Below, one piece after another: positions 16,898 to 22,319 of a DNA stretch of 34,432 bases. The stretch comes from Candidatus Gottesmanbacteria bacterium (GTDB lineage Bacteria > Patescibacteriota > Microgenomatia > UBA10105 > UBA927), in contig OY969569.1 of NCBI GenBank assembly GCA_963701185.1, positions 513,054-547,485 of the forward strand. Reading direction: 5' to 3'. Position 1 is the stretch's first letter, and every line of letters starts with the position of its first letter. Position numbers and translations under genes: made by a program. Under the pieces are notes generated by a model that was given only the letters and a program-made list of their open reading frames with translations, made no database searches and was not told the origin of the DNA.

Positions 16898-16964
16898 ATC
16901 TCTATATACTTATACTATAGACCAACTTTTGTGCAGTGTAAAGTAACCCAAGAGATTTTTACTG

Positions 16965-17036
16965 TGGGCGGCCATGGAGTCGGACCATGCACCTCTTTCT
17001 TATCAGGAAAGCGTTCTACCGATGAACTAGCCGCCC
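16965..17036 (-). tRNA. tRNA-Ile(GAU)
   Basis: GGGCGGCTAGTTCATCGGTAGAACGCTTTCCTGATAAGAAAGAGGTGCATGGTCCGACTCCATGGCCGCCCA folds as a cloverleaf with anticodon GAT. CCA is not encoded. Confidence 0.92.
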
Positions 17037-17062
17037 GAGTTTACAAATTATACCAAATTTTG

Positions 17063-17135
17063 AGGCGCGGAAGGGAATCGAACCCTTGCAATAGAAGTTT
17101 TGCAGACTCCCGCGTTACCACTTCGCCACCGCGCC
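17063..17135 (-). tRNA. tRNA-Cys(GCA)
   Basis: GGCGCGGTGGCGAAGTGGTAACGCGGGAGTCTGCAAAACTTCTATTGCAAGGGTTCGATTCCCTTCCGCGCCT, anticodon GCA, U73 discriminator. Confidence 0.95.
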
Positions 17136-18698
17136 TTACGAACGTATTTTATCACAGGAGCCTATCGCCTCACTAATGGAAGCATATCCATCCCGTTCCA
17201 ACAGGTCCAATAATCCGTTATTAATTTCGGAAATAAGCTGGGGACCCTGGTACACCATGCCGGTAATAAGCTGGACGAGCGATGCGCCGCGATTAATCTT
17301 CTCGTAGGCATCCGCCGCGCTAAATATTCCACCGCACCCGATAATCACGAGTTTCTTTTTGTAATGTTTATACGCAAGTGATATTAATTCGTTTGATCTG
17401 TCAAACGTAGGCTTACCGCTGAAATTGCCCACGGGAAATTTCGCAACTTCCTGCGGCGCGAGCGCCGGACTGCTTCTGTCCTTCCATAGATTTCCAAAAA
17501 TCACCCCCGCTGGGCTATGTCGGACAATGACTTTTAACATCGCGAGCGTCCTGCTGTCAGATTCCGATATGGGCATTTTTACAAATAGCGGGCGTGATAA
17601 ATTCGTTCGGTCGATTGCGGTCAGCAGCGCATCCAAATGTTTCGGCGGGTAAAATGAGACATCTCCTGCGATATTCGGACAGCTGATATTAAGTTCGTAA
17701 TACGCATGGTGTACGCTGGACGATTCAAATAATCTAAAGGCGGCGACAATATCTTTAATACTTTTCTCTCGCGTCGCCAAAGCGGTATTGTTGCTGCGTC
17801 CGATACTCACACCGACGGGTATCGAAAATCGTATTTCTGTAAGCGCTCGTATGGTTGCCGATGCGCCTAAATTTTTGAATCCTTTGTTCACCATGATGCT
17901 TTTTGATACTGGAAGCCTACCCAACATGGGCCGCGGATTCCCCCCATACGCGCCATTTGTAATCGTCCCTACGCTTTGAAATCCAAATCCGACGGATCCC
18001 AAAATCTTTGTGAGACGCGCCTCATAATCAAACCCGGCGGCGAGCCCTACGGGATTGGCAAATTGTATTCCTGCGACAGTTTGGACAAGCCGGTCATCGG
18101 ACACACGGAGAAACCATGTAAAAACAGGCTGAACGCCCGGCACCGAACTCAACCATTGTCCGGCGGAAACCACTCCCGTGTGAATATATTCCGGATCGAT
18201 TTTAAAAAAAATTGGTTTCAAAATCCAGGAATACACAAAACCCCCTATCACCCCCACCCACCACCGGCGGTCATTAGGGTACGCGGCGTGAACAACAAAA
18301 AAGATCAGCGCGCTTATGAGTGCCGACAACAAACAATATTTGCATAGCGCCCCGATAACAAACACCATTACATACACAAAATACAGGGACATCACAAATC
18401 CTGCTGTACCTAAGAACACTGCCAGCATCCTCGTCCACCGTTTATGCGTCAAAAATGCGAGTGAAAATATGACATTTTCTATACTGTAATGAATAAATCC
18501 TACGAGAGAAAGCGGCACACCGAAAAAATAAGAATACCTGCTAGTGAGTACTTTTCCGCAATCCGGAAACCACCCTCCGATCGTACAGGGGGGGATAATA
18601 TTGTGATAATACTCCCATGTAAGATATCCTGCATCCGCAATACCAAAAAGTGAGAAAATAATAAGGAGAGAGGCAAGAAAAAGTACCGTCCGTTTCAT
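17136..18698 (-). CDS. pyrD: Fusion of a vitamin K epoxide reductase (VKOR) domain and a class-2-like dihydroorotate dehydrogenase
   Basis: aa 1 to ~140: four TM helices, loop cysteines PPCTIGGWFPDCGKVLTSRYSYFFGVP and active-site CKYC. Remainder: DPEYIH, NPVGLAAGFD, GNPRPMLGRLP, ELNISCPN, FVKMP, GNFSGKP, IIGCGGIFS, GASLVQLITGMVYQGP. One uninterrupted frame. Confidence 0.9.
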   Translation of the reverse strand: MKRTVLFLASLLIIFSLFGIADAGYLTWEYYHNIIPPCTIGGWFPDCGKVLTSRYSYFFGVPLSLVGFIHYSIENVIFSLAFLTHKRWTRMLAVFLGTAGFVMSLYFVYVMVFVIGALCKYCLLSALISALIFFVVHAAYPNDRRWWVGVIGGFVYSWILKPIFFKIDPEYIHTGVVSAGQWLSSVPGVQPVFTWFLRVSDDRLVQTVAGIQFANPVGLAAGFDYEARLTKILGSVGFGFQSVGTITNGAYGGNPRPMLGRLPVSKSIMVNKGFKNLGASATIRALTEIRFSIPVGVSIGRSNNTALATREKSIKDIVAAFRLFESSSVHHAYYELNISCPNIAGDVSFYPPKHLDALLTAIDRTNLSRPLFVKMPISESDSRTLAMLKVIVRHSPAGVIFGNLWKDRSSPALAPQEVAKFPVGNFSGKPTFDRSNELISLAYKHYKKKLVIIGCGGIFSAADAYEKINRGASLVQLITGMVYQGPQLISEINNGLLDLLERDGYASISEAIGSCDKIRS

Positions 18699-18904: not shown

Positions 18905-20496
<1,592 letters not shown>

Positions 20497-20643: not shown

Positions 20644-21300
20644 TCATTGCTTGTCAATTATAGGGGAGATGGTGGCCATAGTCAATAGCCCCAGTCCGGA
20701 GCCCAATAATGCCCCGCCGATGACGTCGGAAAGCCAGTGGTGGCCAAGGTAAATGCGGCTGACGGCAACGAGAAGTATATAGAAAGCTAACCCTGCACCC
20801 AGCCATTTTTTCCTATGGAACAACATCCACGAAATTATAGCAATAAACACGGCCCTAGCTGTATGCCCGGAAGGATAGGAAAACTGCTCATTTATATAAT
20901 TTGCAGGAAAAATACTGGTTGTATGTTTTATCATTGAAAACGGCGGCGACGGATGATGGATAATGCTCTTTCCATAAAGTTCAACCAACACAATCAGCAC
21001 AAATGCCGCGGAAATGATAAGTGCGTGCCAATGTTTCTTTCTGAATGCCAACCCCGTGAGAATAAAAACGACAACGCTCGTAAAGACCGGACCGGCAAAA
21101 AACGAGGAACCCTCCATCACATTATCTACAAACGAGGCGAGTCTCAGATGTGCTGACTTATCTATCCGATCCTGTATTTTGACCGTGGCGGCAAAATCTA
21201 TGGACCGAATAACCTGCCGGTCTTCATATTTCGACAGCAACAAAAAAGCAAGAAGAAATATAATAGGAAGAAACAGTCTAAATTTTTTTGGTAATCTCAT
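20644..21300 (-). CDS. PAP2 family phosphatase
   Basis: KSIIHHPSP, SYPSGH and SRIYLGHHWLSDV. Start at ATG 21300. Confidence 0.9.
   Translation of the reverse strand: MRLPKKFRLFLPIIFLLAFLLLSKYEDRQVIRSIDFAATVKIQDRIDKSAHLRLASFVDNVMEGSSFFAGPVFTSVVVFILTGLAFRKKHWHALIISAAFVLIVLVELYGKSIIHHPSPPFSMIKHTTSIFPANYINEQFSYPSGHTARAVFIAIISWMLFHRKKWLGAGLAFYILLVAVSRIYLGHHWLSDVIGGALLGSGLGLLTMATISPIIDKQ
20657..20685 (-). promoter_or_regulatory. Sigma70 promoter for the 16S rRNA, inside the 3' end of the PAP2 gene
   Basis: TTGACT-17 nt-TATAAT on the minus strand, about 160 nt upstream of the 16S. Confidence 0.8.
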
Positions 21301-21802
21301 ACAACACAATTCCCAAAGAAACCATGACATTAAGACTTTTATTTATCCCCCACATCGGCAACTCAACGATCATGTCCGAGGCGTCCAATATATCTTTTGT
21401 AATACCCGCTGTTTCATTGCCGACGACAATTGCCAACGGCAAATTATATGTCGCCTGGTAAAATGGTTTACTTCGCGGATCCTGTTCGACGGCAACTATT
21501 TTTATCCCCTGTTCTTTCAATTTTTTCACCGCATCAATGGTATTTTTTGCGTATTCCCAGTTCACCCATCCTGTGGTATTGATCGACGCTTTTTTAATCC
21601 GGGAATTGGGGGGCGTGAGGGTAGTCCCGCACAAAATTACTTTTTCGGCCGCCACGGCATCGGCCAGCCGAAAAATAGATCCCACATTATACGTATCCAG
21701 TACGTTATCAAGGATGATCGTGACGGGATTTTTCTTGATGTTTTTTGCCGCTTCGGGATCTACCGGAGTCGTGCGCAATTCTTTCGCGTTTAACTTGAGC
21801 AT
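21278..21802 (-). CDS. TrmH/SpoU family RNA 2'-O-methyltransferase
   Basis: SPOUT motifs YNVGSIFR, VVGNETAG and LPMWGINKSLNV. Confidence 0.92.
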   Translation of the reverse strand: MLKLNAKELRTTPVDPEAAKNIKKNPVTIILDNVLDTYNVGSIFRLADAVAAEKVILCGTTLTPPNSRIKKASINTTGWVNWEYAKNTIDAVKKLKEQGIKIVAVEQDPRSKPFYQATYNLPLAIVVGNETAGITKDILDASDMIVELPMWGINKSLNVMVSLGIVLYEITKKI

Positions 21803-22319
21803 GAACGTATTTTATCACGTTTCGTTCAATCCAAAGAGAAACGTACCCAATGCCCAGCCCGACGAGCGTACCGGCAATAATATCGTAGGGATAATGCACC
21901 CCGAGGTACACGCGGGAAAGAGAAATGAAAAAAGCCAATGCATAAAACAGCCAACGAGCCCGGGGCTCCTTATCAGCGAGAACGACTGCCAGCGCCCAGG
22001 CAAACGTAGCATGGCCCGATGGAAATGAATAATCGGCAAGCTGCGCTCCCGGCGGGCGATTTCTGCTAAAAAAGTTTTTAAGAAGGATATCCGTAACCAA
22101 TATGCTCAATGATGAGGCCAAGACAACGGGCAGGAAAAACCAGTGATCCTTTTTTTCCTCACGGACAAATAACCAAACGCTTAACAGCAGCCAGATAATA
22201 ACCGTCGAGGCAAATACGCCTGACAATGTGAGTGCCATCGCATCGGACACCGCAGTATGCGGCCAGTGATTGATAAAAAGAAAAATTTTATGATCGAGTG
22301 TAATGAGCAGGTGATACAT
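21708..22319 (-). CDS. PAP2 family phosphatase (BcrC-like undecaprenyl-PP phosphatase)
   Basis: KNFFSRNRP, SFPSGH and SRVYLGVHYPYD. The C-terminal tail overlaps TrmH by 95 bp. Confidence 0.9.
   Translation of the reverse strand: MYHLLITLDHKIFLFINHWPHTAVSDAMALTLSGVFASTVIIWLLLSVWLFVREEKKDHWFFLPVVLASSLSILVTDILLKNFFSRNRPPGAQLADYSFPSGHATFAWALAVVLADKEPRARWLFYALAFFISLSRVYLGVHYPYDIIAGTLVGLGIGYVSLWIERNVIKYVHAQVKRERIAHDSGRSRSGKKHQEKSRHDHP

Follow-up and report, generated by a model that had tools for sequence, protein, structure and literature searches.

A recurrent VKOR-dihydroorotate dehydrogenase-like fusion in CPR bacteria: a candidate redox partner for quinone-dependent disulfide formation

We analysed a 34,432-nt stretch of DNA, here called the window, from the genome of Candidatus Gottesmanbacteria (contig OY969569.1, positions 513,054 to 547,485), a member of the candidate phyla radiation (CPR), and in it a gene whose product joins a VKOR (vitamin K epoxide reductase) domain to a module resembling class 2 dihydroorotate dehydrogenase (DHODH). 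The fusion recurs among CPR bacteria with both catalytic sets intact. Its flavin module belongs to a divergent subfamily, which we call V/L-type, that is distributed independently of the pyrimidine genes and occurs almost exclusively in genomes encoding VKOR or DsbB. We consider it somewhat more likely than not that the two modules are coupled in some way, and the fusion hints at a means by which CPR bacteria, with no respiratory chain, could fold the proteins they secrete.

Two modules with complete catalytic sets in one protein

The open reading frame (ORF) list and the translation gave one frame of 520 amino acids (aa), protein P0001, uninterrupted between the VKOR and DHO_dh domains (Table 1). 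The first-pass annotation had described a VKOR with all four cysteines and a DHODH with its N-terminal helices and the DPEYIH motif (residues 168-173), a description with which ORF, Pfam profiles and structural model agree. In the Pfam profile search, VKOR (PF07884) matched residues 11-136 with 94.6 bits (cut-off 27.5) and DHO_dh (PF01180) matched residues 204-500 with 161.8 bits (cut-off 27). Quinone-dependent DHODH models of NCBIfam span residues from about 155 to 516; class 2 models scored 225-307 bits, class 1 models 61-71 bits. The VKOR part shows the traits of its family, that is a four-helix core, a loop cysteine pair and a CXXC motif at the beginning of the fourth transmembrane helix, and its conserved loop Ser53 is invariant. 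Besides the four cysteines of this part (38, 47, 119 and 122, the last two in CKYC), the protein has cysteines at positions 340, 455 and 515.

An AlphaFold2 model, for which an alignment of 59 fused homologues served as input, reached a pLDDT of 91.8 and a pTM of 0.90, the latter predicting two domains that are rigid relative to each other. The VKOR part of the model has transmembrane helices at residues 2-31, 63-84, 87-115 and 120-139; the N-terminal DHODH helices follow at 141-164, 169-185 and 189-197, and after these the alpha/beta barrel. Foldseek superposed barrel and N-terminal helices on structures of class 2 DHODHs; with 8ofw the match had an E value of 8e-26, a target TM-score of 0.94 and a root-mean-square deviation of 1.7 Å. 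Mean lysine plus arginine counts in the 59-sequence alignment were 1.75 in 5 residues at the N-terminus, 2.81 in 8 in loop 2 and 2.68 in 14 after the fourth helix, as for inside segments, and 1.64 in 35 and 0.34 in 6 residues in the two cysteine-bearing loops, as for outside segments. By these charge counts the VKOR active site would face out and the flavin domain would be cytoplasmic. The predicted arrangement is thus one of a thiol-disulfide relay outside and a flavin domain inside, hung from the fourth helix of VKOR.

A large protein search listed 120 homologues with 51-78% identity. All 120 carry both Pfam domains, and C38, C47, C119, C122 and C340 are invariant among them; the sources named in this list include Levybacteria and Roizmanbacteria. 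A cluster of 85 members in the ESM-Atlas has the identical architecture, and when residues 1-200 were compared with a library of representatives at 50% identity, about 25-30 of the top 150 matches, many of them fragments, spanned VKOR and the N-terminal DHODH helices. Among 401 sampled genomes from the phylum, full-length fused genes were present in the source genome and in seven others, over seven other families, and an unfused homologue was present in about 50. The 120 fused homologues listed and the seven further full-length genes rule out an assembly artefact or a stop codon between the domains. Uniqueness to this assembly and an inter-domain stop had been named in the first pass as findings that would speak against its proposal, and neither holds. 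To judge by the alignments, both catalytic sets are under selection. In one fused variant of 587 aa (locus L021, G107:C17) the modules are separated by two further hydrophobic helices; as their number is even, the side of the membrane on which the flavin domain lies would not change.

A flavin-domain tree of 88 rows places the 34 fused rows, without exception, inside one well-supported clade of 51, together with 17 unfused rows. The fused state changes eight times on this tree, and the starred branches force at least three of these changes. The tree of the VKOR domain contains the same three fused groups, with three changes, one of them forced by starred branches.

Four loci with close CPR-type homologues, fused or unfused (L024, L025, L028, L034), stand on contigs titled, for example, 'uncultured Gammaproteobacteria' or 'Pseudomonadales'. 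These record titles were probably given automatically to bins assembled together and do not show the true taxonomy.

In 7/7 other fusion genomes no VKOR match besides the fused one was found, and DsbA-like genes were found in 8/8 fusion genomes, so that the VKOR module must carry a housekeeping job. A look for dsbA had been suggested by the first-pass annotation, and the source genome indeed encodes two adjacent DsbA-like genes. It also encodes one additional, stand-alone VKOR of 146 aa, which in the VKOR tree clusters with the stand-alone VKORs of close relatives, apart from the fused domain. This gene (G000:C1:757515-760880, locus L002) has a regulator of the Crp family on one side and a short-chain dehydrogenase on the other. 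In several genomes (e.g. G238, G224, G176, G049, G138) VKOR matches lie within open frames of 330-380 aa, which probably encode VKOR with a thioredoxin/DsbA-like domain; VKOR fusions of CPR bacteria would then be of two kinds at least.

A divergent active site

We aligned 140 DHO_dh domains taken from the fetched loci, and the name V/L-type stands for the clade of 67 members that contains the fusions. In the Asn column of the N-x-M-G-[LF] motif, Asn is found in 56/56 class 1 domains (two gaps aside) and 6/6 canonical class 2 domains, and Val or Ile in 67/67 clade members. A Thr/Ser column, following the last active-site Asn, has Thr or Ser in 58/58 class 1 and 6/6 canonical class 2 domains and Leu, Val or Ile in 67/67 members of the clade. 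The corresponding residues of the fusion are Val270 and Leu404. Both exchanges covary perfectly over the 140 domains, four intermediate rows also being V/L. Mapped by motif, the two columns would be the positions of Asn67 and Ser195 of T. cruzi DHODH, which, with other residues, form hydrogen bonds to orotate-type ligands (PMC12060061, in the part available). Residues gained in the clade are two lysines, K275 (55/67) and K406 (61/67), and an asparagine, N303 (67/67).

The quinone tunnel is kept: H173 and R261 are each present in 67/67 clade members, and the alignment suggests that they correspond to His56 and Arg136 of the human enzyme, given as quinone-site residues in the accessible part of PMC7762340. 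At the acid/base position, Cys340 (NISCPN) aligns with the second Ser of M. tuberculosis NVSSPN. We rejected this cysteine as a sign of neofunctionalisation, since CPR class-2-like enzymes linked to pyr operons and with canonical contacts (L142-L144) share it.

Of the class 2 traits, the flavin module has the FMN-binding TIM-barrel fold and the N-terminal helical domain with its His and Arg; it differs in the Ser base, in the complete set of orotate contacts and in the pyrimidine-pathway setting. It has the Cys base of class 1, yet also an N-terminal helical domain. These features point to a divergent DHODH-like subfamily and not to a plain class 2 DHODH. The first-pass label 'class-2-like DHODH' is therefore apt for the architecture and the quinone-tunnel helices, but a plain class 2 assignment does not fit the Cys340 base and the two changed substrate-contact positions.

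An unfused V/L-type gene with 45% identity and NISCPN also occurs on a contig labelled Candidatus Pacearchaeota (L032, RFLC01000125.1) and branches within the CPR clade. Its presence on a DPANN-labelled contig reflects either a transfer between two ultra-small groups or a binning error.

Distribution independent of pyrimidine synthesis

Among the pyrimidine genes to which the first-pass annotation had pointed, pyrB and pyrC gave no match in the source genome (98.7% complete, single contig), and pyrF and a pyrE-like gene are present. The latter two stand with a separate DHO_dh gene and CTP synthase in an operon, pyrD'-pyrF-pyrE-pyrG (G000:C1:309097-312390; locus L003 368-3661), so the pyr pathway of this genome appears as a truncated one that comprises the operon. 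Its pyrF passes the TIGR02127 cut-off (217 > 110). The DHO_dh of the operon, P0121, is a divergent, soluble protein of 361 aa with NLSCPN and the canonical Thr; it matches PF01180 with 65 bits, and its best PDB match is a class 1B PyrD, with an E value of only 4e-7.

A wider picture came from 57 genomes picked by score as V/L-type carriers, two of which (G293, G206) were later found to be canonical and three of which (G350, G146, G364) had sequences that were not fetched. In this set pyrC is strong in 13/57, pyrF is above its cut-off in 24/57, and neither is found in 33/57. Sixteen genomes, each of them pyrF-positive, have a second DHO_dh, against 0/33 of the pyrF-negative ones. All 12 pyrC-positive genomes with a V/L-type enzyme (12/12) carry a second, canonical DHO_dh, which in G380 sits between pyrF and pyrC. 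The eight fusion genomes follow the same rule: a second DHO_dh is found in exactly the three with pyrF, and the other five are without pyrF and strong pyrC. The V/L-type flavin module seems not to be the DHODH of the pyrimidine pathway, and its distribution is independent of the pyr genes. Automatic annotation names this subfamily 'quinone-dependent dihydroorotate dehydrogenase', and CPR metabolic reconstructions are probably in error where they take it for pyrD.

Co-occurrence with VKOR and DsbB

For the comparison with disulfide-forming enzymes we used a corrected set of 59 carriers (8 fused, 51 unfused), leaving out G154 and three fragmentary cases. VKOR or DsbB is encoded by 55/59 V/L-type carriers (93%), among them 47/51 unfused ones, and by 142/338 of the remaining genomes (42%). 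Conversely, just 4/200 genomes without VKOR and DsbB have a V/L-type enzyme. In the first set of genomes, VKOR is not present in 21/50 unfused ones, and DsbB is present in 18/22 of the VKOR-negative genomes. Two genomes of different families, G179 and G181, have a DsbB gene directly beside the V/L-type gene and in the same orientation, and in G031 the divergent neighbour, about 700 bp off, is a VKOR gene. No recurrent neighbourhood of the unfused genes was found in ORF clusters of 67 loci, where the largest cluster, with 7 loci, consists of histidine kinases.

VKOR and DsbB are different proteins with the same job, and a linkage to both therefore indicates that the job matters and not one fold. 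A quinone-mediated redox link predicts just such a combination of VKOR fusion, DsbB adjacency and a difference in co-occurrence.

Electron sinks and proposed function

Neither cytochrome bd nor heme-copper oxidase (COX1) was found in the source genome, nor was a quinone prenyltransferase, in line with the premise of the first-pass annotation that CPR bacteria generally are without respiratory chains and quinone synthesis. The sole UbiA homologue was tried as a candidate MenA and rejected: it is another enzyme, matching decaprenyl-phosphate phosphoribosyltransferase above the cut-off (220.1 > 207) and adjoining a GT4 gene. For a canonical fumarate reductase or succinate dehydrogenase flavoprotein, the source genome gave only matches to the dinucleotide-fold N-terminus; it does encode argH and purB, the enzymes that release fumarate. 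Cytochrome bd is present in 2/58 other carriers. CcdA/DsbD-type transporters were found in 6/8 fusion genomes (5 above cut-off), and with such a reductive route at hand VKOR would be unneeded as a reductase.

We propose that the outward-facing, catalytically complete VKOR most likely re-oxidises DsbA-like proteins and reduces a membrane quinone. The second module, a cytoplasmic FMN enzyme of V/L-type with a class 2 quinone tunnel, would share this quinone, which is probably scavenged, re-oxidise the quinol made by VKOR and reduce a cytoplasmic acceptor with a C=C bond, either orotate-like or a dicarboxylate, e.g. fumarate. Oxidative protein folding without a respiratory chain would be the outcome. 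What we infer here is that the quinone is shared, which way the electrons flow and what accepts them. That no ordinary quinol sink was found in the source genome, and cytochrome bd so rarely in other carriers, was counted in favour of a coupling. To the specific direction, with VKOR as quinol maker and the flavin module as quinol sink, we give somewhat less than an even chance. A dicarboxylate such as fumarate is conceivable as acceptor, a speculation suggested by two lost ring hydrogen-bonders, two gained lysines and the presence of argH and purB. In its widest form the proposal would make the V/L-type enzyme an unrecognised quinol-oxidising terminal reductase for electrons from VKOR and DsbB, the fusion a self-contained chain from DsbA to an acceptor (fumarate from purB and argH, or orotate), and the whole a general CPR solution for oxidative folding; this is possible, and we regard it as doubtful.

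The earlier suggestion had been that orotate, or another substrate, serves as the sink. Its second branch is now the likelier one, given the altered contacts and the pyr-independent distribution, and orotate would be a poor acceptor on thermodynamic grounds. The orotate/dihydroorotate couple and the flavins of class 2 DHODH lie at about -0.25 V, menaquinone at about -0.07 V and DsbA-type disulfides at about -0.12 V.

Several observations weigh against a coupling in the proposed direction. With the potentials just given, a path from quinol over FMN to orotate would be steeply uphill unless flavin and acceptor differ, and for fumarate the pocket changes and the presence of argH and purB make it a candidate acceptor and nothing beyond that. 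The survey for heme-copper oxidase and other quinol oxidases covered the source genome. The fusion protein passes the NCBIfam equivalog cut-offs of two quinone-dependent DHODH models (NF003652, 284.7 > 267; TIGR01036, 225.8 > 200), the eight other listed models of this kind scoring it under their cut-offs. Six pyrF-positive genomes have the V/L-type enzyme as their only DHO_dh, and it may act as DHODH there. For the VKOR-domain tree a single fused clade, as from one historic fusion, is not rejected (approximately unbiased test, p 0.238), and close relatives are without the fusion, be it lost or absent there. To judge by the trees, the fusion is old and was repeatedly lost or regained, and coupling by fusion would not be obligate. 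Fisher's test gave a p of about 1e-14 for the co-occurrence, a value that is overstated as related genomes are not independent; four of the 59 carriers have neither VKOR nor DsbB, and part of the co-occurrence could stem from a requirement for quinone that the enzymes share. Among the unfused loci examined, targeted checks showed adjacency in only three (two with DsbB, one with VKOR).

Alternatively, the protein could be two independent quinone reducers on one anchor, with VKOR oxidising DsbA, the flavin module oxidising dihydroorotate or a relative, and both drawing on a common scavenged quinone. The quinol would be re-oxidised by O2, by the host or by another enzyme, and the fusion would serve anchoring, co-expression or access to scarce quinone. 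Both enzyme families would then work in their canonical direction, in line with the kept tunnel residues H173 and R261; close relatives function unfused, 21/50 unfused genomes of the first set doing so without VKOR, the fusion state changed at least three times on the DHODH tree, and co-occurrence with VKOR or DsbB is expected here too if all three need quinone. Scavenged quinones have been proposed for VKOR in quinone-less Clostridia, where the authors raise the oxidation puzzle as well (PMC12453122, in the section available). We nevertheless regard this explanation as unlikely. It assigns no purpose to a quinone-reducing dehydrogenase in the 33/57 genomes without pyrC and pyrF, it provides neither module with a sink, only 2/59 carriers having cytochrome bd, and it gives no account of why a rival for oxidised quinone should be linked to both VKOR and DsbB.

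Electrons might also flow the other way. The flavin module would oxidise host-derived dihydroorotate or a related donor and over-reduce the quinone, and VKOR would run backwards, reducing extracytoplasmic thiol-disulfide proteins. Such a transfer is downhill from dihydroorotate to DsbA-type disulfides, no quinol oxidase was found beyond the two cases of cytochrome bd named above, and the gap between menaquinone and DsbA is small enough that a fully reduced pool could reverse VKOR. A reversed VKOR would, however, deprive the 7/7 other fusion genomes, in which it is the sole VKOR beside DsbA-like genes, of their disulfide generator, and CcdA/DsbD-type transporters already give 6/8 fusion genomes a reductive route, a finding that weakens the first-pass variant in which dihydroorotate oxidation is discharged onto external disulfides. 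Since the residues contacting dihydroorotate are altered and no source of it was found (pyrB and pyrC in the source genome), we judge the reversed flow to be quite improbable.

We think it marginally less probable still that the protein is an ordinary bifunctional one, a true class 2 DHODH making orotate for UMP from scavenged dihydroorotate, fused to VKOR by a neutral accident of genome compaction. The equivalog scores, the pyrF and pyrE-like genes of the source genome and the six pyrF-positive genomes with this DHO_dh type only are in its favour. It conflicts with the 5/8 fusion genomes that are without pyrF and strong pyrC, with the other DHO_dh inside the pyr operon of the source genome and with the exchanges of Asn for Val, Thr/Ser for Leu and Ser for Cys at catalytic or contact positions. 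Nor would an accidental fusion be expected to keep four VKOR cysteines in 120/120 homologues or to recur as an adjacency to DsbB. That VKOR is a mere membrane anchor or quinone-holding scaffold which has lost its thiol-disulfide function we hardly credit: class 2 DHODHs need membrane association, for which a four-helix anchor would serve, but the loop pair, the CXXC motif and loop Ser53 are invariant and the domain is the sole VKOR of 7/7 other fusion genomes.

VKOR or DsbB is encoded in 197/397 sampled CPR genomes, about half, and as these bacteria largely have neither a quinol oxidase nor a way to make quinone, the question arises how the two enzymes are re-oxidised. Being fused to VKOR, found beside DsbB and almost confined to genomes with either, the V/L-type flavoenzyme is a concrete and testable candidate for the missing partner.

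Genomic context

All features of the locus lie on the reverse strand (Table 1). The 34,432-nt window contains no 23S rRNA gene; the rRNA genes look unlinked, and a protein gene occupies the usual spacer position. We rejected the adjacency to 16S rRNA as a conserved trait, rRNA being present in 0/12 other fused loci. Just upstream of the 16S rRNA gene (20644-22319, reverse strand) are two genes for PAP2-family phosphatases (228 and 203 aa), followed by those for topoisomerase I and DprA.

Table 1. Features of the fusion gene and its surroundings, in positions of the window
Feature	Position	Strand	Basis or remark
Whole fusion gene, 520 codons and stop (protein P0001)	17136..18698	-	ORF list and translation; both Pfam domains in a single frame
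VKOR domain, residues 11-136, four transmembrane helices, active site predicted outward	18291..18668	-	PF07884, model, K+R counts
Loop cysteine pair C38...C47 (shuttle cysteines)	18558..18587	-	Invariant in 120/120 listed fused homologues
CKYC redox motif (C119, C122), outer end of fourth transmembrane helix	18333..18344	-	Both Cys invariant in 120/120 listed fused homologues
Linker and N-terminal helical (quinone-tunnel) domain of DHODH-like module, residues 141-197, with DPEYIH and H173	18108..18278	-	Model helices
FMN barrel of DHODH-like module, residues 204-500	17199..18089	-	PF01180, Foldseek
Codon of Val270, in place of Asn of the N-x-M-G-[LF] motif	17889..17891	-	Alignment column
Codon of Cys340, catalytic acid/base position (Ser in class 2)	17679..17681	-	Alignment to M. 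tuberculosis DHODH NVSSPN
Codon of Leu404, in place of Thr/Ser after the last active-site Asn	17487..17489	-	Alignment column
tRNA-Cys	17062-17135	-	Begins one base after the fusion stop codon
tRNA-Ile(GAT)	16964-17036	-	Beyond tRNA-Cys
16S rRNA gene	18907-20496	-	Flanks the fusion gene

Comparison with known systems

A literature search found no publication on a VKOR-DHODH fusion or on CPR DHODH, in agreement with the first-pass statement that no characterisation of the fusion was known to it, though supplementary domain-architecture tables may hold it; the papers listed for the two enzymes together dealt with ferroptosis or with other, unrelated matters, and one paper on Patescibacteria mentioned VKOR only as a variable core gene. 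Each domain comes from a known superfamily, and it is the architecture and the V/L-type subfamily that appear uncharacterised.

The VKOR module is like bacterial VKOR of the M. tuberculosis type and like the Synechococcus VKOR-thioredoxin-like fusion in its Pfam family, its four-helix core, its loop cysteine pair and CXXC motif, and in the DsbA-like partners encoded in the genome. It differs in its own partner, which is a cytoplasmic flavoenzyme here and an extracytoplasmic thioredoxin/DsbA domain there, and in being without the fifth helix, so that its C-terminus would be inside. For the flavin module, class 2 DHODHs (E. coli PyrD 1f76, M. tuberculosis 8ofw, human 1d3g) are the best matches in sequence and fold, with equivalents of His56 and Arg136 and the FMN barrel motifs in common. 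In contrast to them, the fusion has Cys for the catalytic Ser and Val and Leu for two contact residues that are kept in every canonical DHODH examined, and V/L-type enzymes are uncoupled from pyrC and pyrF and stand fused to or beside VKOR or DsbB. With the fumarate-dependent class 1A DHODHs (L. lactis, T. cruzi) the module shares the Cys acid/base, and in class 1A this same pocket reduces fumarate, a C=C acceptor. Class 1A enzymes, however, have no N-terminal quinone domain, and by our alignment and the available part of PMC12060061 they retain the Asn and Ser contacts, which the V/L-type has lost.

Giant viruses likewise have a VKOR with genomic coupling to another enzyme, an epoxidase-desaturase that is adjacent to or fused with VKOR and is the proposed consumer of its quinol (PMC13486548, in the text available). 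The partner enzyme and its chemistry are different there, the context is that of eukaryotic viruses, and DHODH goes unmentioned in that article (0 occurrences).

The proposed function resembles the anaerobic DsbB route of E. coli, where a disulfide-forming quinone reductase hands its quinol to a terminal reductase. Electrons reportedly run in that route from DsbA over DsbB and menaquinone to fumarate or nitrate reductase, as is said to have been described by Bader et al. in 1999. In the CPR case the putative terminal reductase would instead have a DHODH fold and be carried on the same polypeptide as VKOR or encoded beside DsbB.

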